The translations under genes were made by a program, and so were the position numbers. 64,000 nt of DNA from a virus: UHGV virus genome UHGV-1364441, one strand, 5' to 3'. Every line of letters starts with the position of its first letter. The stretch's first letter is position 1. The notes under the pieces are model-generated. The model was not told the origin of the DNA. It saw only the letters and a list, made by a program, of their open reading frames with translations, and did not search any database. Positions 4,694-54,468 of this stretch are shown here, one piece after another.

Positions 4694-7600
4694 TTAATCC
4701 TCAAGCAGAGCATCCAGCGACGGGTCATTAATAGTTGTGCTAGCACGTGGTCGCGGTTGCGGCTGCGATGTTTTGACAACCTTATCCGGATCGCCTTTTG
4801 TATTGTTCTTGTTCACATTCAGAAGATCGTTCAGGATAGAGCAGATGTTATCCAGCGCCTTCAACATAGCAGGATCGTTATTTATAGTGTCAGTAGTTAA
4901 TGGTTGTCTTATTCCGCTTCGTGCGAGATCTGTTACAGTAGGAAGCTGTGGTGGCATAGCAAGAAAAGGTTCTTGCACAGCTGAAGCAGAGCCAAATATG
5001 GCGTTATTGGCACCAGTTGCTATTCCCCTAATGCTATTAGCGGTTTGTTGAATCCCCCCATTCAGCCAGTCTCCAACATTTCTTGTTAATGGGCTAATAG
5101 CTCGCGCAATCGCACTATTCTGTCCAGTAGACTGCATTACAAGATCGTTCAATATCCCTGTACTATCAATCCCCCCAACAAGTCGTGAAAGGTTATCGCC
5201 AACGGCAGGAATTACTGCGGTTCCTGTCTGTTTAAGCCCTGACACCGTGGAATCAAATAGCGAACCAAAGAAGCTCTTATCCTCACCTGTAACCACCTTG
5301 TAGCCGTTGTCATAAATCTGCACATCACTTGGTGCCGTGATAGTTCGTTTTCCAGAGGTAACTACTGGCGCAGCTCCCGCCATAGCCTGGTTGATTGCTA
5401 GAGCCTGCTCCTGCTGTGGAGTTTTCGGTGCTGGCGCTGCAGACGAAAAGCCCTCCATAGCCTGGCTGATTGCCAGAGCCTGCTCCTGCTGTGGAGTTTT
5501 CGGAGTAGAAGGGGATACTTGATCTCCCGGAAGTAGATCAATGATTTCTGTATCGTGATTAACAGTGCGTTTTTGTTGTATGGCTGTTGCGATATCAGCC
5601 ACTTGAGAAGCTTTTTTAAATCCAAAAGATTTACCGGTTAAGCCGGATATCTTTTCAGTAAGAGCCTGATCCATTCCTTTCGCTTTTTCGGAAAGCGAAG
5701 ATATAGAACCAAACGAAGTAGCTAACGCAAAATCCTTTCCCAGGTCCAGACTTGTTCCAGCAAGGCTGGTAGCCGCGCCGCCAAATAAATTACTTGCACC
5801 ACTGATTCCGCTTTCATTTATTGTGATTAACCGCTCAAGCAAACTCGATGGAAAGCCGGTATTAACATCAGCGTTCTCTGGATTAATCGGTTGTGGTTGG
5901 TTACCTGTTTTTTGTGGCTTTTTGGCGGCCTGGGCATGTTGTGCAACTTCAATTGGCTTAGGTGTTGCTGTTGGAACTGCATTCAATACAGGTTGTGCTG
6001 GAGATGTACCATCAGCATATTTCACCTTGCGACCAACGCTATATTGCGAATCACGAGCAATTAGTTGACCACCATTCTCTTGCTGAATTTTATTAAGCCG
6101 CGCCAATGTTTCATCGGAGAACCGCCCTTCCCAACGACCAGTATTTGCGTTGAATGCCCCAAGAGCATTCTTTATGAACTCATTGTTAACCGCCGGGTTT
6201 CCACCTTCTTTCGTCGCTATTGCACGAACTAATTGCGTCATAACCTCTGGGTTGCTGACGTCTATTTTTTCATTAGGCGAGACGCCAAGATATTTACTGA
6301 CGTTATCAATATATTGATTGGTATTGTTCTCATTTGGCGGCGCCCATTTGGAAATGATGCTTGATACCGTCTGTAACTTCTGATGTCCTGCTGCGGCACT
6401 GGTGCCGTTGTAATAGCTTGACACTTGGTTTGCCAACGCCCTGATCCCTTCTTCAGGTGTGTTAAATCGCGCAAAACGTTGTTCACCTTTTGCATTTGGC
6501 GATTCCAGCGTCGCCCCTTCCTGGTTGGCAAAAACAAGATTGCCGAGATTATTATTTCGGTAATTGCGGTTTTTAGCGTTGCTGCCGCCAATATTCAGAT
6601 CCGCTGCAATGGTGTTGTTGGCAGGTGCACTAAATTCTGTTGGAGAAGTATACCCGTGCTCACCAACTCCATCCTCGCCATTACGCCCACCTTGTAATTG
6701 TTCACCAAGAGAATGAATCGCATCGACAGTTTTTTTTGTGCCGTCTTCAACAGCTTTTTTTACTTGTTTCGTGTTTTCGTCAGTGGATAAAAATGTATCC
6801 TTAAGGTTACCAAAAACAGATTTGGTGATATCTACCGCGCCGTTAACACCACGAGCAATATCTCCGGTATCAAAATTCTGAAGTTTTTCACCTGCTCTTT
6901 CAAATCCTAGCGCAGAAATTCCTTTCCCTATCAAGTTCGTTGCGCCCGACACCAAGCCCCCCATATCGAGCACATTAGCTGTTGCGTAAGCCGTTTTTTG
7001 CTGTTCGGATACAGCATCATCGTCACTTAATCCAAAGGCTGCCTTTTGCGCATCTGTATCAGTGTAACCATCTATAGCGTCATATCCCGCCATAGCCAGC
7101 GATCCGATGATCGGGATAGCTCTTGCAGCTGTAGAAGCAGCTGATTTAACACCTATTTTTGCAGCACTTTTGAGGGCTACGGATTCGGTTTTTTTCTTTG
7201 CAACAGTTTCACCTGTTTTAATTGTGGCCTCTTCGGCAACAACACCTGCTGGCTTAACTGCCTTTGCTGTGTTTTTTGTTTCTTTAGCAATACCCTTAGA
7301 TGCGTCGCTTGTGGTGCTGATGTCTTTGGCTTTACTAACCTTTGTTTTAACAGTCTTTGCAGCTCCGGCACCAGCTCCAGCAGCAGCGGTTCCGGCAGCG
7401 GCTTTTTCACCAACAGAAAGGGCTTTTTTCCCCAGATTGCGACCTTTCCTTTTCGGTTTGTTCCGTTTATTTTTACCAGCCTGATCGCCAATATTGATTT
7501 TATTTCTTCTGCTTGCTCGATTTCTCCAGAGATCACTTAAGCCGAACTTATTCCCAGAAGATACTGATTTGCGTAGCTTAACTACTTCGTCGGAGACATT

Positions 7601-9569: not shown

Positions 9570-9839
9570 AAGCGATTATTGAGGGTGATTTTTACACCTT
9601 AAGTGACGCTACTCACATATCCACAGAGTATTTTTATAAACCTTTTTCCATTTTTAATCCTTTTTAGATCCTTTTTAGGCGTCGCTGGAGCCAGTAGTGG
9701 CGCGGGCTGTAGAGGAGGCTGGTGTAAGATTTGCCCTCAATTAAATACGATCGGTGTAAGATTTGCCCTCAAAAGGTGTAAGATTTGCCCTCAAAAGGTG
9801 TAGTAATTGCCCTCAAAGTGATGTAAAAATTGCCCTCAC
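9570..9839. repeat. iteron array upstream of rep gene (one inverted copy at 9570-9589, five direct ~20-bp copies at 9721-9839)
   Basis: ggtgtaagatttgccctcaa x3, ggtgtagtaattgccctcaa, gatgtaaaaattgccctcac; shares the ATTTGCCCTCA core I recall from F plasmid ori2 iterons. Confidence 0.8.
9611..9700. promoter_or_regulatory. origin-proximal AT-rich region with DnaA-box-like sequence (ATATCCACAG)
   Basis: catatccacagagtatttttataaacctttttccatttttaatcc; lies between an inverted iteron copy and the direct iteron array. Confidence 0.4.
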
Positions 9840-9862
9840 CATTTGAAGGATCACACAGGGTT

Positions 9863-10618
9863 ATGAACAGAGCGGAATTAACAGCAAAAGCCGTCAGCCT
9901 GATTGAGTCAGCGACACCTATTAGTCGTAGTTTGGCACAAGCCAATGAGATCACGGAGGCTGCTTATCACCTGACTCGCGACCAAAAGCGACTGTTGTTT
10001 ATTGTGGTGGGAAGACTTCGCTATGCTTCTAAGGATGGCGTTCTTGGTTCAGGTGCCTGTGAGTTGACGGTCAACGAATATGCAGAGATGTATAATTTGC
10101 CCTCTGCTGAAGCCAGCAAGGATATTCGTAAGGCCATTTCAGGGCTTAGCGAGAAGAAAGTTACGATATATAACCCTGATGAATCGACCGAATCAGAAGA
10201 CAGTTATGAGTCTTATCCTTGGATGATTAAGGATGCCTATTCACCACGGCGCGGGACTTACATTATTCATCTTAATCCATATCTCATGCCGTTTTTTACT
10301 CTGCTTGATAAGAGATTCACAAGGCTGAATTTTACCGAAGTATCTCGCCTTACAAATCCTTATTCTATGCGGCTTTATGAGTCCTTATGCCAGTACAGGA
10401 AGGATGATGGAAGCGGCTTTGCCATACTTGGCGTCGAATGGATGCGGGAGCGTTATGGGTTACCAAAAAGCTATCAGCGGTATGCCGAATTTAAGAGAAG
10501 TTTTTTAACGAAGGCTGTAGCAGAGATTGAAAAAAATACAAAAATGAAAATAGTCTTCTCAGAGGTGACGGAAGGCGGCAAAGTTACCAGGATAAAATTT
10601 ACCTATCAGCAGTCTTAA
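9863..10618 (+). CDS. repE: RepE/RepA-family (Rep_3) iteron-binding replication initiator
   Basis: Protein aligns along most of its length with F plasmid RepE as I recall it (TEAAY.L.RDQKR, AEASKDIR, YESxPW.IK, NPY.MRLYESLCQYRK.DGSG, LP.SYQR); start taken at MNRAEL (ORF track starts 9830). Confidence 0.9.
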   Translation: MNRAELTAKAVSLIESATPISRSLAQANEITEAAYHLTRDQKRLLFIVVGRLRYASKDGVLGSGACELTVNEYAEMYNLPSAEASKDIRKAISGLSEKKVTIYNPDESTESEDSYESYPWMIKDAYSPRRGTYIIHLNPYLMPFFTLLDKRFTRLNFTEVSRLTNPYSMRLYESLCQYRKDDGSGFAILGVEWMRERYGLPKSYQRYAEFKRSFLTKAVAEIEKNTKMKIVFSEVTEGGKVTRIKFTYQQS

Positions 10619-10912
10619 GGGCAATTTTTACACCCCTCTCAAGGTGTAGAATTTGCCCTTAACGATCGGCAATTGAGGGCAATTTTTACATCTTAATTGC
10701 ATGTATCTTGTTATTAGCAAGTTGTGTTTTTATATAACGTATTGATATGTAAGGACTATGTAAAAATCGCCCTCAACCAATATCGTGCGTATCGTGCATT
10801 CTTATTGCGCTTTTTTATTATCATTCACTGTGTTAACTGATTGATATTATTGAAATGTGTAAAGAATGCCTTCATTACAGATGAATTGATGATGTAAAAA
10901 ATGCCCTCAAAA
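10617..10912. repeat. downstream iteron cluster (inc-like), mixed orientation, interspersed with AT-rich DNA
   Basis: Copies at ~10617 (inverted), 10643, 10674 (inverted), 10759, 10893 of the same GTGTAnnAATTGCCCTCAA family. Confidence 0.7.
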
Positions 10913-23944: not shown

Positions 23945-25606
23945 ATGAGTGAGGCAGAAGCCCGCCCGACTAACTTTATTCGTCAGATCATCGATGAAGA
24001 TCTGGCAAGTGGTAAGCACACCACAGTACATACCCGTTTCCCGCCGGAACCGAATGGCTATCTGCATATTGGTCATGCGAAATCTATCTGCCTGAACTTC
24101 GGGATCGCCCAGGACTATAAAGGCCAGTGCAACCTGCGTTTCGACGACACTAACCCGGTAAAAGAAGATATCGAGTACGTCGAGTCGATTAAAAACGACG
24201 TTGAATGGTTAGGTTTTCACTGGTCTGGTAACGTCCGTTACTCCTCCGATTATTTTGATCAGCTCCACGCCTATGCTGTTGAACTGATCAACAAAGGCCT
24301 GGCGTATGTTGACGAACTGACGCCGGAACAGATCCGCGAATACCGCGGCACCCTGACGCAGCCGGGTAAAAACAGCCCGTACCGCGATCGCAGCGTTGAA
24401 GAGAACCTGGCGCTGTTCGAAAAAATGCGTGCCGGTGGTTTTGAAGAAGGTAAAGCCTGCCTGCGTGCGAAAATCGACATGGCGTCGCCGTTTATCGTGA
24501 TGCGCGATCCGGTGCTGTACCGCATTAAGTTTGCTGAACACCACCAGACTGGCAACAAGTGGTGCATCTACCCGATGTACGACTTCACCCACTGCATCAG
24601 CGATGCGCTGGAAGGTATTACGCACTCTCTGTGTACGCTTGAGTTCCAGGACAACCGTCGCCTGTACGACTGGGTGCTGGACAACATCACCATTCCTGTT
24701 CACCCGCGCCAGTACGAATTCTCGCGCCTGAATCTGGAATACACTGTGATGTCCAAGCGTAAGCTGAACCTGCTGGTGACCGACAAGCACGTTGAAGGCT
24801 GGGATGACCCGCGTATGCCGACCATTTCCGGTCTGCGTCGTCGTGGTTACACTGCGGCTTCTATTCGTGAGTTCTGCAAACGCATCGGCGTGACCAAGCA
24901 GGACAACACCATTGAGATGGCGTCGCTGGAATCCTGCATCCGTGAAGATCTCAACGAAAATGCGCCGCGCGCAATGGCGGTTATCGATCCGGTGAAACTG
25001 GTCATCGAAAACTATCAGGGAGAAGGCGAAATGGTCACCATGCCGAACCATCCAAACAAACCGGAAATGGGTAGCCGTCAGGTGCCGTTTAGCGGTGAGA
25101 TTTGGATCGACCGCGCCGATTTCCGAGAAGAAGCTAACAAGCAGTACAAACGTCTGGTGCTGGGTAAAGAAGTGCGTCTGCGTAATGCTTACGTCATTAA
25201 GGCTGAACGCGTGGAGAAAGATGCCGAAGGCAATATCACCACCATCTTCTGTACTTATGACGCCGACACCTTAAGCAAAGATCCGGCAGATGGTCGTAAA
25301 GTGAAAGGCGTTATTCACTGGGTGAGCGCGGCACATGCGCTGCCGGTTGAAATCCGCCTGTACGATCGTCTGTTCAGCGTGCCGAACCCAGGTGCTGCTG
25401 ATGATTTCCTGTCGGTGATTAACCCGGAATCGCTGGTGATCAAACAGGGTTTTGCTGAACCGTCGCTGAAAGAAGCGGTAGCGGGTAAAGCATTCCAGTT
25501 TGAGCGTGAAGGTTATTTCTGCCTCGACAGCCGCCATTCTACGGCGGAAAAACCGGTATTTAACCGCACCGTTGGGCTGCGTGATACCTGGGCGAAGTTA
25601 GGTTAA
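23945..25606 (+). CDS. glnS: glutaminyl-tRNA synthetase
   Basis: 553-aa protein with class I HIGH ([12 protein letters not shown]) and VMSKR motifs; matches enterobacterial GlnRS essentially end to end from memory; own promoter-like upstream region and terminator. Confidence 0.95.
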
Positions 25607-34161: not shown

Positions 34162-34459
34162 TACACACGGAGAGGGCAAAGTGCAAGCACTATTCGGATG
34201 AACAGAGTTAGTTCGTTGTTCTGGAATTTATTGATTGTCAACAAGTGACTTTCATTAAACTTAAGGCATGGACCAGCTCGATAGTGAGCTGGTTGTTATC
34301 TACAGATCGAAGGGATTCGACAAGATGAATACTTTTAATAAGCTGATTGATTTATTGAATAAATTCATTAGCGCCTCTTTAACTAAGCAGGTGTCCACGT
34401 CAGTGTTTTTGTTACTCTTCTACCTGGTATTGCGGGAGTTAACAAAGCTACTGATGTGA

Positions 34460-48702: not shown

Positions 48703-49092
48703 ATGGGCTTCCCTTCTCCTGCGGCGGATTATGCAGAGAGCCGCATTTCTCTTGATCAGCAACTAATCAGACATCCTTCCGCGACCTACTTCATGCGGGC
48801 GGCAGACAGCCATCACCGTGAGGGAATATTGCAAGGTGCTTTGCTGGTGGTTGATTCCTCACTTACTCCGGTTGATGGTTCACTGCTTATATGCGCTATG
48901 GAGGGTGAATATCGCATAAAGAGATACAGGAAATATCCGCGCCAGCACCTGGAGGATTTAAGCACCGGGAAGAAAGAGGCGTTACCAGTAGATGACGATG
49001 GATGCACGGGCAGTAATGCTGTTTTTGGTGTGATCACTTATGTCATTAATGATGCCAGAAGTGGGGAGTTTGATTATAGACCTGTGATTTAA
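48703..49092 (+). CDS. humD: HumD/UmuD'-like S24 peptidase-fold protein
   Basis: GFPSPAADY...HPSATYF..A.DS...G.L.G.LLVVDSS collinear with UmuD lacking the N-terminal arm, as in P1 HumD. Confidence 0.75.
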   Translation: MGFPSPAADYAESRISLDQQLIRHPSATYFMRAADSHHREGILQGALLVVDSSLTPVDGSLLICAMEGEYRIKRYRKYPRQHLEDLSTGKKEALPVDDDGCTGSNAVFGVITYVINDARSGEFDYRPVI

Positions 49093-49137
49093 GGCGCATA
49101 AAGAAGCCCGCCAGACCAGGCGGGCTTTTTGTTGATA

Positions 49138-50232
49138 TCATTCAATGATTTTTTCGGCTGTCAGCCAGCTAATTTCATGCCTGTCTTTCGGCGGTTTTAG
49201 CATGTGAGCATATTCAGCGACATGCTCCCACGGAATTGTTTTTGCCCACTCAACGATAGCATTGTGATCTGCAGTGAAGAGTGGAATAGTGTGCGATTTC
49301 AACCATTCTAATGTCGTGACGCCATGTTTTTTGGCGTGGTGCTGCGCATGATGCCGGGCTATCACTCGTAATGGCATTGTCCATTCACTACCATCAGGCA
49401 TCGAAAAGCGCATTGTCTTCGGCATATCTGATTCAAGAACAGCCTCCCTAATACCAGGGAACTCACCAAGAATCATACGACGATAGTCATCACTATTTCG
49501 CCCGCCATACCTTTCGGCAAAATGATCAAGATATTCTTGGGTAATAAATGGTGAATCCTCCGCACTCAGCTTAATGGCTTTATATACACCACTCGTATTA
49601 TCTTCAGCTAAAGCACGTCCATGATGTGAATCATAAAAAAAGCCTATTTCCTCTGGTGACGGAATTGAAGTGAGCAATATGCGTGAATCACCACTAGTCA
49701 TGCTTGCCCACACAATGCTGTATGCCCGATCGCTGATATGTGCGGAATCCACAATAATGAATAAAAGATGGTCGGCGTAGTGACCTGCAATGCTATCTTC
49801 ATAGTTAAGGCGGTAGTTACAAAAGCACATTCCCCAAAATTCATTGAACATCAGACCGCTATCACCGACCTTAAAATACTCAATGATAAAAGGTTGTTTT
49901 TTCAGCAATGCCTCCCAACATTGCCACACATATGCAACAATTCCTCTTTTGCAAGCATTTGATTTTGGATAAACAATTACTGTCCGGGAATCAGGATACA
50001 TAATCGTATAAAGGGTACTAATAACAGCAAGCACTTGCGGTCGTCCGATCCCATACGGAGTGGTGACAGTAGCTTTTGCATTATTGGGCTGTATAGCTTC
50101 AACAATTTGTTGTTGCTGGTGGCTTAAATCAATATCAAACAATTCTTTTGCTGCCAGTACCCAATTGTCTTTATATTTCTCCACCAGCGACAGCCAGCGC
50201 GGATCTTTATAAATATTGCTCTTAGTCGCCAT
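49138..50232 (-). CDS. terminase large-subunit paralog with degenerate ATPase motifs
   Basis: Collinear with the PacB-like TerL at 55532..57040 (DPRW..., SHQQQ.I...Q, AGHYADHLLFIIVDSA, GFFYDSHH, ED.PF.T..., YGGR) but Walker A GHGTGKS replaced by TPYGIGRP and Walker B ILDEAS by IIVDSA; shorter C-terminus. Confidence 0.6.
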   Translation of the reverse strand: MATKSNIYKDPRWLSLVEKYKDNWVLAAKELFDIDLSHQQQQIVEAIQPNNAKATVTTPYGIGRPQVLAVISTLYTIMYPDSRTVIVYPKSNACKRGIVAYVWQCWEALLKKQPFIIEYFKVGDSGLMFNEFWGMCFCNYRLNYEDSIAGHYADHLLFIIVDSAHISDRAYSIVWASMTSGDSRILLTSIPSPEEIGFFYDSHHGRALAEDNTSGVYKAIKLSAEDSPFITQEYLDHFAERYGGRNSDDYRRMILGEFPGIREAVLESDMPKTMRFSMPDGSEWTMPLRVIARHHAQHHAKKHGVTTLEWLKSHTIPLFTADHNAIVEWAKTIPWEHVAEYAHMLKPPKDRHEISWLTAEKIIE

Positions 50233-50989
50233 CTGCCACTTCCTTAACTTCTTCTTTGGCCTGTTCTGCAATCGCCGCACGGCATTTCGCCCTGGCTGTA
50301 GCGATTGCTTCAGCTCGCACATCGTCTGGAATCGTTGACGTGATATACATATCCAGTTCTTCGGCACGGAATACTGTTTGGTCCAGATATTCGCGTAGCA
50401 TCCAGGTAAATTCGAAATCACACGCGATAATCTCTGCGCTACCTTCTGCACCATTTGGGAAATGAATAAATGCCTGTTTAGCCAAACCGATAACACGACA
50501 TGCGGTTGCCAAAACAGCGACAACCAGGTTTACATTTTCACACGCTACGGGCTGATTAACGCCGGAGATTACTCCATTTAACTGTCGGTTATATGGAAGG
50601 TAGTTTGAGATGCGTTCTACGCGCCATGTGCCAGTCAGGCTGCCATTTTTAAATATAATTGGTGTAACGGATAGCCCAAGCTCGCGTATAAGTCGTTGCG
50701 CTATAGCAGGATCATTAAACAGGTCTAATGCTACACATTCGAAAGACTGCGCAAGGGCAAACAGTTCTTCCAGAGAGTAGTCTTTGCCCCTGGCGGTGAT
50801 GTAACGACGAACGCCGCTGTCTGCATCACTCCATATAGCTACGCCATGCTCTTCATTCAGCTCTTCATTAAAGCCGAGATACGTCATGATAGTGCGTTCA
50901 ATCGTGTCAAACGGCAGTGACATGTCGGCGTTAACAGCCACCAGCAGGCCATTACGCAAGCGGTATTGAATTGTTTTAGTGCTTTCCAT
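50222..50989 (-). CDS. hypothetical protein
   Basis: 255-aa ORF overlapping start of TerL paralog. Confidence 0.45.
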   Translation of the reverse strand: MESTKTIQYRLRNGLLVAVNADMSLPFDTIERTIMTYLGFNEELNEEHGVAIWSDADSGVRRYITARGKDYSLEELFALAQSFECVALDLFNDPAIAQRLIRELGLSVTPIIFKNGSLTGTWRVERISNYLPYNRQLNGVISGVNQPVACENVNLVVAVLATACRVIGLAKQAFIHFPNGAEGSAEIIACDFEFTWMLREYLDQTVFRAEELDMYITSTIPDDVRAEAIATARAKCRAAIAEQAKEEVKEVADGD

Positions 50990-50995
50990 GTCAAA

Positions 50996-51658
50996 TCACT
51001 CCACAACAAACCAGTCACAGGCCAGCAGGTCGCCAACTGAAGGCACCCACGGAACAACTACACCTTGTGCATTTTTTAAGGCGAAATAAGCACCATACGG
51101 AACGAGGTCGCCGGGGAAATATCCCTTAATGGCTTCCATTCGTGCCGGGTACTGTCCTTCGGGAACCAGCCAGCAGAATTGGTTTTCGCCGTTCCACCCG
51201 CGTCGAGCAACTTTCTTGCCATCCTTCAACCACATCAGCGCGTCAGAAAAGTCGGCTGCTTCAAGGTCGATTTCTTCTTGTAGAGTAGCGATACCGCCAG
51301 CAGAAATAGTTACGTCCCTGGCTGTAATGAATGTCACCCCATTGTGACCTTCAATGCTGAGCGATACCCCATTTTCGGAGGCGTCGTTAACCCGGCTATA
51401 GCATTTTTCAAATGCTTTCTCTGGCACATAGACCAGATAACCATTTTCAGCAGTGACGAGATATCCTCCTATTTGCGGTCGGAACTTTTCCAAGAACACA
51501 CCATCAACACGAAGCGTCATTCCTTTTGGCTCCACGACTTCGATGCTGCCAAAAATGGGCGCATAAGCTTTGCCGACAATAACAATATCTTTGATTTTCG
51601 ATGCCCGAATGATGCTGTGGCATTTGTATTTGGGGAACACCTGAAAAGTGCTGGCCAT
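50996..51658 (-). CDS. two-domain protein with possible DUF2829-like C-terminal domain
   Basis: C-terminal FSDALMWLKDGKKVARRGWNGENQF...GDLLACDWFVV resembles DUF2829 consensus as I recall it; family call tentative. Confidence 0.4.
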   Translation of the reverse strand: MASTFQVFPKYKCHSIIRASKIKDIVIVGKAYAPIFGSIEVVEPKGMTLRVDGVFLEKFRPQIGGYLVTAENGYLVYVPEKAFEKCYSRVNDASENGVSLSIEGHNGVTFITARDVTISAGGIATLQEEIDLEAADFSDALMWLKDGKKVARRGWNGENQFCWLVPEGQYPARMEAIKGYFPGDLVPYGAYFALKNAQGVVVPWVPSVGDLLACDWFVVE

Positions 51659-51672
51659 AATCCTTCCTCTAC

Positions 51673-52167
51673 TTAAAACTTTGCGTACTGAAGCGGTGTA
51701 CGCTTGATTTCAACGCGGCCTTCCGATGTGCTACCAAAGCCACCAGCACCACGCTCCGTTTCGTTGAGTTCCTCAACCTCGACTAGTGAGACTTGTTCAA
51801 CACGCTCAAAAATTCCTTGCATGACAGCCATTCCAGGCTTGAGACAAACGCCTTCCCCGCCTGGATCAGTAATCAGTTTTGCCATGATTTCGCCGCGATA
51901 ATCGGAGTCGATAATTCCTACGCAGTTAGCCAGGCGAGTATGTTTTTTGCAGCCCAATCCTGATCGCGGATAGAGTTTCAGACACCAGCCGGGCGGGATC
52001 TCCATAGCCAGTCCGGTATACACCCACCAGCTTGAGGAAATTGCACCATTGCTATCGACGCATGGTTTTATTTCAACAGCCTCAAAATCCATCGCCGCCG
52101 ATCCGGAGGTGGCATAAGCTGGAAGTTTTGCTGCCGGATGTAGGCGTTTCACTTTTACGTAAATCAT
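51673..52167 (-). CDS. dut: dUTP diphosphatase (trimeric dUTPase)
   Basis: AYATSGSAAMD, PRSGLG, GIIDSDYRGE, RGAGGFGSTS motifs. Confidence 0.85.
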   Translation of the reverse strand: MIYVKVKRLHPAAKLPAYATSGSAAMDFEAVEIKPCVDSNGAISSSWWVYTGLAMEIPPGWCLKLYPRSGLGCKKHTRLANCVGIIDSDYRGEIMAKLITDPGGEGVCLKPGMAVMQGIFERVEQVSLVEVEELNETERGAGGFGSTSEGRVEIKRTPLQYAKF

Positions 52168-52640
52168 TGTTTTTTAGCTCTCTGCGTGAAGGTGTAAACC
52201 CGACGTTTGATATGTGGAACGGTAGGAACAGGAAGACAGGAACTTTCAATAACTCCTTGCTCCTCCAGCGATCGCACCGCCCGCAAGAACTGCGACGTGT
52301 CGCCGCCAAACTGGCGGGCATAGGTGCTGCCGTTATGAAGTATTTGAGCTATTACCCGAGCTTTTGTCTGGCTGTCACGATATGCGAATAGCCGCACGGC
52401 CTCTTCTGGCGCAATCGCTAACTGATAGCCTTTCCCGGCACGGTGTCGAATGAATCCATGCGCCAGTAGGTTTTTGAGTTCGTTACGAGTGCGAACAGAT
52501 CCGTAATCCAGGAAGTGTGGATTGATAACGACTGGCTTAAACCATTCCGTAGGTGCTTTAGCTAATAGAGCTAACAGCTTCCCGGACAATTCTGGATAGG
52601 AAGACGGGTAACAATTCAGAGATGGGTAATAAGTTTTCAC
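52164..52640 (-). CDS. hypothetical protein
   Basis: 158-aa coupled ORF. Confidence 0.4.
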   Translation of the reverse strand: MKTYYPSLNCYPSSYPELSGKLLALLAKAPTEWFKPVVINPHFLDYGSVRTRNELKNLLAHGFIRHRAGKGYQLAIAPEEAVRLFAYRDSQTKARVIAQILHNGSTYARQFGGDTSQFLRAVRSLEEQGVIESSCLPVPTVPHIKRRVYTFTQRAKKQ

Positions 52641-52981
52641 CGACGCCCCCTTGCCGGATATCGACCTGCATTAGTATCCGGTGCAATAAAGCCGGTAGTG
52701 GGGCGAGTGAAAGCGAGATTAATCTTCTCGACCATAGTGCGATAATTTTCCTGATAGTGGGCCAGGAGTTTTTCGGCGGCAATGATGGTTACTTTCCGGA
52801 CGTAGCTTTCTGCTTCCTCCAGATTTCGCCAGTTTTTTTCGAGGGTAAACACAGGGACGGCCTCAAGCCCGGTCATGATGCCGAACACAACGACAGCATG
52901 ACTGTTCTTAACACCAGCGGCGAAGGTTACGGTGTAACCATCCACCTTGAAGCGTCTTGATTCCGTGATTTGACTCTGCAA
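52637..52981 (-). CDS. hypothetical protein
   Basis: 114-aa ORF, first gene of operator-controlled operon. Confidence 0.4.
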   Translation of the reverse strand: MQSQITESRRFKVDGYTVTFAAGVKNSHAVVVFGIMTGLEAVPVFTLEKNWRNLEEAESYVRKVTIIAAEKLLAHYQENYRTMVEKINLAFTRPTTGFIAPDTNAGRYPARGRR

Positions 52982-53037
52982 AGCACCCTCCTAAATAGGC
53001 GAGGGTACTTTACAGCAAAGGCGTTAATCTAAAAAGA

Positions 53038-53051
53038 TGTGTTAGAAATTT
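53038..53051. promoter_or_regulatory. operator-like motif upstream of 52981 operon
   Basis: tgtgttagaaattt. Confidence 0.5.
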
Positions 53052-53054
53052 AAT

Positions 53055-54083
53055 TTACGAATCCATCAGGCGGCTATTAGCCCCCACAGACACGCCACCA
53101 CGGCGAAGATACCGCATAAGTGTTTCCGGTTTCTTCCAGGTTCCTTCCTGCATGATCTCCACCATAGACACCTGCTTTTCAGCCATATCAATAGCGGCCC
53201 CGACGCGTGCACTATGCCCGGTCCACGTCCGGTATCTTCCTTTGTTTGGCGTAGCATCTCTTTTATTCAGCAACACCCAGGCGTCGCTGAATATTTTCTC
53301 CATTGCAGGTGCAGTAAGGGGCGTTGTCGTGATCCTGGCCTTATTGCTACGGTGTATCGGCGGGAACAGCACTGCGTCAGGATGTTCGCGAAGCCCGGAA
53401 ACATCCAGCCAGTCATTCAGCACAGCGGTAGTGCGACGGGAAAGCACCTTATCAAGCCCGGCGGCGGTCGTTATTGTCTTCGTGTGTGAAATATGTAGCG
53501 TGACAGTGTCACCTGTTTGGTCCAGATCTCCTACACGAATACGCGAGATTTCCGACATACGCATCAGCGTATTGTATGCAACAAAGAGAAAAGCCCGGTT
53601 GCGCAGATCCACCAGCCGTTCTGACCTGGACAACAGGACGTCGAGCAGTTTCAGATCGTCCCACCGCAGCGGTATAGCCTGGCCTGTTCGTTCGCCTTTT
53701 TCAGTTGCCGCTTCGCGCCGGATGCGCCGCATAGCCAGAGAAACACTTTTATCATCCGAAAGTGGCGGAAGGCCACAATGCGAAAGCAGCATGTTCAGCA
53801 TGGCGTAGTGCTTATCAATGGTGGTCGAAGCCAGATCGGCATCATGCAGCTGAAGAAAATACTCGCGGGCCATTTCTGGTGAGATCGGAAACCAGGCAAG
53901 CTGGCGAGCGTGACACCAGCGCGCCCAGGAATGAAACACCAAACGGAGGTCGCGCAGAGTATTCGGCGCATAAGCTCCCTGGTCATTCATGAACCGCATA
54001 AAGTTTTCTGCGGCTTCCTGGTACTCTTTGCCAATGTTGCGCAGAAAACCACCGGAACTGCCAGAGATAATTAATTCACTCAT
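53055..54083 (-). CDS. cre: Cre-like tyrosine recombinase
   Basis: Collinear with P1 Cre as recalled: WFP..PE..R.Y.L.L, SVSLAMRRIRRE, RMSEISRIRVGDL, HISHTKT, WTGHSARVGAAIDMA, EIMQEGTW; catalytic R-H-R-Y context retained. Confidence 0.85.
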   Translation of the reverse strand: MSELIISGSSGGFLRNIGKEYQEAAENFMRFMNDQGAYAPNTLRDLRLVFHSWARWCHARQLAWFPISPEMAREYFLQLHDADLASTTIDKHYAMLNMLLSHCGLPPLSDDKSVSLAMRRIRREAATEKGERTGQAIPLRWDDLKLLDVLLSRSERLVDLRNRAFLFVAYNTLMRMSEISRIRVGDLDQTGDTVTLHISHTKTITTAAGLDKVLSRRTTAVLNDWLDVSGLREHPDAVLFPPIHRSNKARITTTPLTAPAMEKIFSDAWVLLNKRDATPNKGRYRTWTGHSARVGAAIDMAEKQVSMVEIMQEGTWKKPETLMRYLRRGGVSVGANSRLMDS

Positions 54084-54439
54084 GAAACTATTTAACCTCT
54101 ATATACAGATGACGCTACGCGAAAAATATAAAAATGACAGGGTAGCTATAAGTTAATTTTCAAGATTCAAGCCTTTGATTCGAGGCACGTATTTTCAGTG
54201 ATGTCAATACTGATCATCTACCCATGATTATAGCCTAACTTTAAATAATGCCAATTATCTAAAGTTAGAAATTTAGGAATTTTTTTTCTTTCCGCGCAGA
54301 TGGGCAATGCATTGCTGGTGTGGGCTTTAAGTTATGCCTGGCAGTTTTTAAGCAGAATTTTCTAAATTGGATGATAAAAAAATGCATCTTGATCCTTTAC
54401 TCACCCTGTTATTCGGCATAGATTTGTCATAGTAATTTT

Positions 54440-54452
54440 ATGTTAGAAAACT
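54440..54452. promoter_or_regulatory. operator-like motif 17 bp upstream of 54469 start
   Basis: atgttagaaaact; a second partial copy at ~54262. Confidence 0.5.
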
Positions 54453-54468
54453 AAATCGAGTAGGAATA

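Follow-up and report, generated by a model that had tools for sequence, protein, structure and literature searches.

A probable early, repressor-controlled accessory operon in a D6-like phage-plasmid, with a dUTPase, a Tad2-type sponge candidate and a predicted inactive terminase paralog

Introduction

Why should the gene for a dUTP diphosphatase (dUTPase), the gene for a putative sponge of immune signals and a copy of a terminase gene stand together behind an operator-like sequence, and when would such a set of genes be expressed? The question is raised by a stretch of 64,000 nucleotides (nt) of the virus genome UHGV-1364441, which was analysed as a whole and is hereafter called the window. 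On its minus strand, from 52981 down to 49138, lie six co-directional open reading frames (ORFs) which encode, in order, two small proteins named after their phage D6 counterparts (orf117 and orf116), the dUTPase (dut), a fusion protein with a DUF2829/Tad2 domain, IsaA and a paralog of the element's own PacB (TerL). The window belongs to a D6-like, P1-family Escherichia coli phage-plasmid. Phage-plasmids of the P1 and D6 types are frequent in E. coli and Salmonella from the clinic and from livestock, and their accessory operons determine the hosts that they can enter and in which they can persist.

A preliminary description of this DNA had taken the cluster for an operator-preceded accessory module, early or induced on derepression, rather than a morphogenesis operon. 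We conclude that it is probably an early accessory operon outside morphogenesis, which would be kept off by a C1-like repressor in the plasmid-prophage state. Below we set out the evidence for this reading, consider the individual products and weigh the other explanations that the locus admits.

Evidence for a single accessory operon

The six ORFs match the PGAP annotation of near-identical plasmids and are tightly packed; adjacent genes overlap by 4 nt at each of the first two of the five junctions, stand 14 and 6 nt apart at the next two and overlap by 11 nt at the last, in agreement with the preliminary description, in which the genes were called translationally coupled or closely spaced. 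The last of these junctions depends on the start assigned to the PacB paralog, which we place at the ATG at 50232 and not at 50523 (the upstream TTG of the longest ORF) because the PGAP call, the N-termini of homologues and PHROG 5902 concur. A promoter and terminator scan found neither kind of signal on the minus strand within the six genes, barring one low-scoring promoter-like match (9 of 12 consensus positions, 49164-49137) at the 3′ end of the paralog. The identical six-gene order is found in a lineage whose IsaA and paralog are 72% and 65% identical to those of the window, and all six genes are under purifying selection, with ratios of non-synonymous to synonymous polymorphism (pN/pS) of 0.04-0.33 relative to close relatives (small counts). 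Membership of a defence system was also considered and was rejected, as a PADLOC scan of all six proteins gave no match.

The relatives of P1 provide the main argument as to what kind of operon this is. In P1 itself, ssb, with its experimentally defined C1 operator Ossb/Op21, is followed by isaA-IS1-isaB; the order is ssb-isaA-paralog in MH422554 and vB_EcoM-813R1, and ssb-Tad2 fusion-isaA in SJ46 and Ro157c2YLVW, with no P1-type genome examined carrying all three cassette genes. In a CRISPR interference (CRISPRi) screen of P1, ssb, isaA and isaB were each scored as nonessential for plaque formation (PMC10695390). Our view of the D6-type cluster as an accessory unit that is early and gated by C1 rests mainly on these cassettes of P1 relatives, which follow ssb under Ossb, and on isaA of P1, which was scored as nonessential. 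Taken with the operator upstream of the cluster, these observations uphold the earlier view of an accessory rather than a morphogenesis operon, and by the same inference an early, derepression-induced timing is well supported.

The operator motif and a putative C1 regulon

The gap between the recombinase gene dre and the first gene of the cluster contains a sequence that we regard as a candidate operator of the D6-type C1 repressor (53036-53057; Table 1). Its seed 12-mer, TAAATTTCTAAC at 53041-53052, has seven occurrences with no more than one mismatch in the window, against 0.4 expected, and a weight matrix derived from the seed sites returns 14 sites above 13 bits in the window, below which there is a clear gap. 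The site ahead of the cluster scores highest of the 14, at 29.6 bits. An unbiased enrichment of 11-mers found the same motif independently, as the second most enriched family after Chi. The consensus approximates to AATTAAtTTTCTAACAyA, with TTTCTAAC as the core.

Every one of the 14 sites is intergenic or lies on the terminal codons of ORFs. The 13 further sites, which include three inverted pairs, are found ahead of ref, lpa, c1, rdgC and a long plus-strand early operon (41417 onward), at the ref stop and next to rox. For those at ref, lpa, c1 and rox, the P1 record has C1 operators (Oref, Omat, Olpa, Oc1ab and Oc1e) in equivalent positions. The 22-nt operator ahead of the cluster is unchanged in D6, pB2C_96 and CP057047, in which the adjoining bases differ. 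The operator reported in the preliminary description is thus real as a sequence feature, as are the six ORFs behind it, and its position and enrichment point to a D6-type C1 operator. The set of sites provides a testable operator consensus and maps out a candidate regulon of the D6 immunity type.

Promoter, leader hairpin and a model for expression

A weak putative sigma-70 promoter, read by eye, adjoins the operator in a layout, with the operator abutting the minus-35 element, that is like those of Olpa/Plpa and Oc1e/P4cre in P1. The putative minus-10 element sits in the 5′ arm of a leader RNA hairpin, for which folding gives a centroid of -25.6 kcal/mol (z = -3.5 relative to shuffled sequences). 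The arms of the hairpin do not vary across the four elements compared and thus offer no covariation, the changes being confined to the loop and the upstream spacer. The P1-type late-promoter motif (ACAAGTGAyT-N-TAnnnT) is not enriched in the window, where the single good match is at 34242, and is not found in 49.0-53.1 kb, a low-power test with the Lpa motif of D6 undefined.

These features suggest a model for how the operon would be expressed. C1 would bind the operator just upstream of the weak promoter and, when C1 is lost on infection or induction, a single polycistronic mRNA would run from about 53000 to the terminator-like hairpin at 49121-49106, as the gene spacing and the lack of internal signals imply. 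Translation is coupled at three of the five junctions, as the gene overlaps show. Transcripts from the putative promoter would be without the 5′ arm of the leader hairpin, which transcripts reading through from dre would carry; more speculatively, the latter would fold the 15-bp hairpin over the orf117 ribosome-binding site, which suggests a device that discriminates transcripts by their promoter of origin and insulates the operon from dre read-through. Of the products, the dUTPase would presumably keep uracil out of replicating phage DNA and the Tad2 protein would sequester an immune signal, its ligand being predicted from relatives; they would be made together with the D6-lineage unknowns orf117 and orf116 and with the conserved pair of IsaA and the PacB pseudoparalog.

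The dUTPase and the two preceding genes

Judged by curated family models, the third gene encodes a canonical homotrimeric dUTPase, as the preliminary description had it. The protein passes the NCBIfam equivalog model NF001862 (121.5 bits; cut-off 103) and also TIGR00576 (119.2; cut-off 102.55), and it is matched by many solved Dut homologues. Aligned with E. coli Dut (39% identity), it shows readable motifs III (GIIDSDYRGE) and V (RGAGGFGST); its only extras over the E. coli enzyme are 8 inserted residues and a C-terminal tail of 16.

The first two genes are of the D6 lineage. The orf117-like protein has no match in Pfam-A, NCBIfam, PDB sequences or PADLOC at the thresholds used, and the orf116-like protein none in Pfam, NCBIfam, PDB or PADLOC; in a tblastn search of deposited phage records both turn up in D6 only, though each matches a PHROG family.

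A long-form Tad2 protein

The fourth gene encodes a fusion of an N-terminal domain (approximately residues 8-100; hereafter X) with a C-terminal Tad2/DUF2829 domain (residues 132-220). PF11195 matches residues 136-219 with 80.2 bits against a cut-off of 25 (E 1.6e-22). The alignment with ModTad2 (9EIB, E 5.8e-20; 8V3E, E 7.6e-20) takes in the whole Tad2 domain (88-89 residues), and the fusion also matches HgmTad2/AcrIIA7 (1e-9 to 4e-10) and SPO1 Tad2 Gp34.65 (6.5e-9). The gene has a pN/pS of 0.04.

ModTad2 (also MoTad2) sequesters the histidine–ADP-ribose signal (His-ADPR) of type II Thoeris and the cyclic nucleotides cUMP/cCMP of Pycsar (bioRxiv 10.1101/2024.01.03.573942, 10.1101/2025.08.24.671296), and an earlier survey put the share of phage-plasmids with Tad2 at 93% for the D6-like and 56% for the P1-like ones (bioRxiv 10.1101/2025.09.12.675607). 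The end-to-end alignment with a solved His-ADPR sponge supports the preliminary description of the DUF2829 protein as a putative sponge. We regard the fusion as a candidate Tad2-type sponge of the ModTad2 clade, which would be expected to sequester TIR/Thoeris-type signals and possibly cyclic-nucleotide signals.

The architecture of the protein departs from that of its relatives. SPO1 Tad2 is a single domain of 89 amino acids (aa) and solved chains of the family mostly have 88-104 aa, whereas the protein encoded here has 220 aa, with an N-terminal extension of about 130 residues; it does not have the short single-domain architecture (~90-100 aa) of Tad2. Domain X, encoded at 51266-51658 (-), is a separate phage domain, and the two-domain long form was not seen in the Tad2 literature examined. 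A long-form Tad2 under early and probably repressor-gated control would have the timing that a signal sponge needs.

The combination of X with Tad2 is also present in gp55 of the Klebsiella phage SopranoGao, an unrelated phage (locus L019, 2986-3582), and matches to domain X are found as well in Ralstonia and Burkholderia phages and in Pseudomonas phage PaBG.

IsaA and the PacB paralog

IsaA is found in P1/D6-type elements only; IsaA alone is present in 465 plasmids. Its predicted model gave no convincing fold match, and the idea that it might be a paralog of PacA (the small terminase) was dropped, as it has no similarity to PacA.

The PacB paralog consists of an ATPase-like domain (residues 1-260) followed by a DUF5076-like domain of about 95 aa (residues 265-364). 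Residues 7-259 are 37% identical to the PacB of the same element (E 6e-61). A predicted model of moderate quality (predicted local distance difference test score, pLDDT, 74) has the ATPase domain of T4 gp17 as its best Foldseek match, followed by TerL of P74-26, D6E, HK97 and Sf6. Blocks of PacB that are not catalytic are kept, namely the N-terminal helices, HQQ, FYDSHH and GG..S..Y...LG.FP. The catalytic motifs have degenerated: Walker A reads GIGRPQ, compared with GTGKSS in PacB, and Walker B reads IVDSA, compared with LDEAS. In an alignment of five family members, R, Q, Q, H or E stands where Walker A would have its lysine, and VD, TE, AE, MD or IN where Walker B would have Asp-Glu. The nuclease domain is gone, as residues 265-364 of the paralog do not align with residues 265-502 of PacB. 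From these replacements the paralog is predicted to be catalytically dead, such that it cannot be a packaging motor, and the earlier notion of a dead TerL paralog holds.

The paralog is present in 164 plasmids, of which 34 are D6-type (at least 95% identity), 10 have versions at 60-80% identity and 120 are P1-type at approximately 52%. It follows isaA at every locus inspected and, among the matches listed, overlaps a second annotated coding sequence. Neither D6 nor canonical P1 has it, and for this reason we regard it as dispensable. Whether IsaB, which occupies the corresponding position in canonical P1, is a remnant of the paralog was also considered; the two are unrelated in sequence. The C-terminal domain is nearly invariant between lineages whose N-terminal domains are 64% identical, and it corresponds to a family of proteins of about 100 aa, with 197 representatives and at least 925 protein clusters. 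It falls in no Pfam family, giving merely sub-threshold hints of DUF5076 and 3IC3.

The most likely interpretation of the protein itself, based on its motifs and domain structure, is a non-catalytic binding protein on a TerL ATPase scaffold, with the C-terminal domain as its functional tip. That IsaA and the paralog form a conserved two-gene early module, in which the fusion of a dead ATPase with a lambdoid domain would work purely by binding, is a tentative proposal and, taken as a whole, rather an unlikely one. The binding may serve to titrate PacA or pac DNA so as to time packaging, to interfere with the terminase of competing phages or to engage Avs-type host sensors of the terminase fold. 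A literature search found no terminase decoy, anti-Avs terminase fragment or terminase-derived regulator. Were the proposal true, a pseudoenzyme derived from a core motor of virion assembly would have been reused as an accessory factor. What makes the gene worth attention is the combination of a conserved, selected and apparently enzymatically dead copy of a terminase ATPase with IsaA, to which it is coupled, and with a very widespread, unannotated small domain.

The element and the neighbourhood of the cluster

The Dre/rox recombinase system derives from D6, a relative of P1. A 4.2-kb query was 99.5-99.6% identical over its full length to about seven E. coli plasmids, which are non-mobilizable and roughly 90 kb in size; phage D6 matched it with ~97% identity across 62% of the query length. 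Nucleotide identity to the orf113-orf117 region of D6, downstream of dre (GenBank MF356679, AY753669), is 97-98%, and the deposited D6 annotation was used to name the neighbourhood. In the direction of the cluster, lpa-pacA-pacB on the minus strand (58793-55532) are followed by c1, rox, dre and the six genes (Table 1). The C1-like protein has 20% identity to P1 C1 over 239 aa (pairwise E 6e-8). The rox site of the window differs from that of D6 by a single T-to-C change in one 14-bp arm (ATTATCTAAAGTTA in the window, ATTATTTAAAGTTA in D6).

At the other end of the cluster, the junction of humD with the paralog is a recombination hot spot. In some relatives (locus L015, 1666-2267; locus L018, 6631-7232) a phd-doc module separates humD from the 3′ end of the paralog; the window has no such module.

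Several other features of the element were observed. Exact Chi sites (GCTGGTGG) number 47 in 64 kb, against 1.9 expected, and head the unbiased k-mer enrichment; examples at the cluster are 50115-50122(+), 50181-50188(-), 50938-50945(-), 51740-51747(-) and 52024-52031(-). Published work describes P1 as rich in Chi, a property which this D6-type element evidently shares. About nine copies of TTGAGGGCAAT-like repeats, at 9730-9829 and 10615-10900, lie on both sides of an ORF of 262 aa (9830-10618), which looks like an iteron-flanked plasmid replication gene. The element also carries a full-length homologue of glutamine--tRNA ligase (glnS; 23945-25606, plus strand) and, according to the annotation of a near-identical plasmid, a HigB/HTH toxin-antitoxin pair and a PAAR-domain protein.

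Table 1. Genes, sites and putative signals at and around the six-gene cluster (positions in the window)
Feature	Position	Strand	Remarks
orf117-like gene (D6 orf2/orf117), 114 aa	52637..52981	-	TTG start, GGAGG Shine-Dalgarno; phrog_1968 4e-48
orf116-like gene (D6 orf3/orf116), 158 aa	52164..52640	-	GTG start overlaps orf117 stop; phrog_6669 3e-98
dut, homotrimeric-type dUTP diphosphatase, 164 aa	51673..52167	-	PF00692 1.7e-14; NF001862
DUF2829/Tad2 fusion (X+Tad2), 220 aa	50996..51658	-	PF11195
IsaA homologue, 255 aa	50222..50989	-	restricted to P1/D6-type phage-plasmids
PacB (TerL) paralog, 364 aa	49138..50232	-	start overlaps isaA stop by 11 nt
Candidate D6-type C1 operator, TAAATTAAATTTCTAACACATC	53036..53057	-	begins on dre stop codon, ends 55 nt upstream of orf117 TTG
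Weak putative sigma-70 promoter	53007..53035	-	-35 TTTTTA (53035-53030), 17-nt spacer, -10 TAAAGT (53012-53007); read by eye
Leader RNA hairpin, 15 bp	52976..53015	-	3′ arm holds orf117 Shine-Dalgarno (52991-52986) and TTG start (52981)
Terminator-like hairpin	49106..49121	-	17 nt past paralog stop, in gap before convergent humD; promoter/terminator scan
humD, S24/UmuD-like gene	48703-49092	+	convergent to PacB paralog
dre, Cre-like tyrosine recombinase gene	53055..54083	-	directly upstream of cluster; 41% identical to P1 Cre; named dre in D6
rox recombination site	54236..54267	+	compared directly with D6 rox annotation
Operator-like site beside rox	54259-54280	-	weight matrix 20.9 bits; positional analogue of P1 Oc1e/P4cre next to lox
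Operator-like site just upstream of c1-like gene	54437-54458		weight matrix 18.8 bits
c1-like repressor gene, 345 aa	54469..55506	+	C1 in D6 annotation
All 13 further operator-like sites, with the two above	18221, 28132/28148, 36937/36961, 37614, 41341/41357, 54259, 54437, 58868, 62582, 62738		weight matrix

Alternative explanations

Several observations weigh against the reading of the cluster as a C1-gated early operon. The consensus scan yields no sigma-70 promoter between dre and orf117, a gap of 73 nt in which TTTTTA-17-TAAAGT fits just 7 of the 12 consensus positions and falls under the scan threshold; the motif is tied to C1 binding by its position alone, with a C1-like protein just 20% identical to that of P1; the timing of expression is inferred from P1; and four of the six proteins are without demonstrated function. 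In addition, dre is followed by no intrinsic terminator and is driven by a strong promoter (TTGGCA-16-TATAAT, 54254-54227) which overlaps rox, and transcription of dre in lysogens could thus take in the six genes in part. Taken further, this leads to a different account, in which the six genes form the far end of an operon headed by dre and transcribed from that promoter, and are expressed at least weakly in the plasmid-prophage and serving the lysogen, for example by means of a dominant-negative terminase fragment that excludes related phages or by protection of the plasmid from host immunity; the 'operator' would then merely modulate or block read-through. In keeping with such an account, the dre promoter is the sole consensus-grade minus-strand promoter in 48.5-54.6 kb, no U-tract terminator lies in the dre-orf117 gap, and an operator-like site flanks the dre promoter in the manner of P1 Oc1e/P4cre, which according to the P1 record 'may control expression of cra and cre'. 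However, the top-scoring operator of the window sits exactly between dre and orf117, the stable hairpin would bury the orf117 ribosome-binding site in a read-through transcript, and the homologous cassette in P1 relatives is attached to ssb under Ossb and not to cre. We consider an origin of expression at dre unlikely, if still to be taken seriously, and retain the early operon repressed by C1 as the preferred reading.

The remaining explanations concern single products. The paralog and IsaA could together be a working auxiliary part of the packaging machinery, such as a regulatory subunit that, bound to PacA or pac DNA, sets the time of pac cleavage or limits it; the similarity to PacB extends over the whole ATPase domain, with the non-catalytic blocks kept and the catalytic residues lost, and both the TerL fold of the model and the purifying selection are in keeping with this. 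We find it improbable, as there is no copy of the gene in canonical P1 or in D6, which was deposited as an isolated phage (host E. coli C600), and the gene belongs to an operator-preceded operon with dut and Tad2 rather than standing beside lpa-pacA-pacB; the lack of a late-promoter motif around the cluster (with the low power of a search that has one match in the whole window) and of any similarity between IsaA and PacA point the same way. Conversely, the missing Walker A lysine and Walker B Asp-Glu pair, a nuclease domain lost in its entirety and a sporadic distribution might be taken as signs of a decaying, pseudogene-like duplicate of pacB that is without function. This is very improbable in view of intact, full-length ORFs in 164 plasmids, which represent three allelic lineages (at least 95%, ~65% and ~52%) and two genomic contexts, a pN/pS of 0.12, a conserved overlap with isaA and the gain of a conserved extra domain. 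As to the dUTPase, the preliminary description had hinted at a moonlighting signal, citing a general precedent. In the staphylococcal phage Duts that derepress Staphylococcus aureus pathogenicity islands (SaPIs), a variable insertion mediates binding of the repressor, and there is a cognate partner of the Stl type. The C-terminal tail and the short insertion of the protein encoded here could be thought to serve a similar end. Unlike those Duts, however, it has no large variable insertion; it keeps motifs III and V and passes the equivalog model, and neither a satellite nor a partner resembling Stl was identified in the window. The hint is not borne out, and that this dUTPase should be chiefly a signalling or derepressor protein, and should for that reason stand in a regulatory-looking operon, strikes us as scarcely credible.

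Comparison with known systems

For the most part the cluster is ordinary: it comes from a known phage lineage and contains a member of a known sponge family and a standard dUTPase. The unexplained parts are the IsaA-pseudoterminase pair, its small domain and the long form of Tad2, for which the functions put forward here are hypothetical.

The closest counterpart is D6, which has the same order of dre, orf117, orf116, dut, DUF2829 gene and isaA, with an identical operator and hairpin. D6 differs in having only the C-terminal Tad2 half of the fusion (146 aa), without the N-terminal domain, and in lacking the PacB paralog, in whose place it has pdcA-doc-phd; the window and 34 plasmids (at least 95% identity) carry the paralog. 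The P1-type cassette genes are more distant, with identities to those of the window of 48% for IsaA, 52% for the PacB paralog and 81% for the X+Tad2 fusion (the SJ46 protein). The P1-type cassette follows ssb rather than a recombinase gene, has another operator sequence and is without dut or orf116/117. In canonical P1, IS1 and the unrelated isaB occupy the position of the paralog.

Compared with PacB, the paralog keeps the ATPase fold, has its RNase H-like nuclease domain swapped for the unrelated domain of ~95 aa, and is encoded in what is probably an early accessory operon, away from lpa-pacA-pacB. The swapped-in domain has its own relatives in lambdoid phages, where stand-alone proteins of ~100 aa from the early/nin region (related to PHROG 17928 and weakly DUF5076-like) are ~30-40% identical to it and share the motifs M-P-D-G-S-x-W...IA..RA..YA...P-L-F...DWA..NM.W. 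Homologues in Enterobacter and other lambdoid prophages (loci L010-L012, gene at 6001-6315) are located in the interval from the DnaB/O-P replication genes to ninB, which also holds Ead/Ea22 and DUF551 genes. A function for the domain, if found, would carry over to a large family of lambdoid prophage genes of the early region. In those prophages the homologues are independent early genes, whereas in the paralog the domain is fused to what appears to be a dead terminase ATPase domain.

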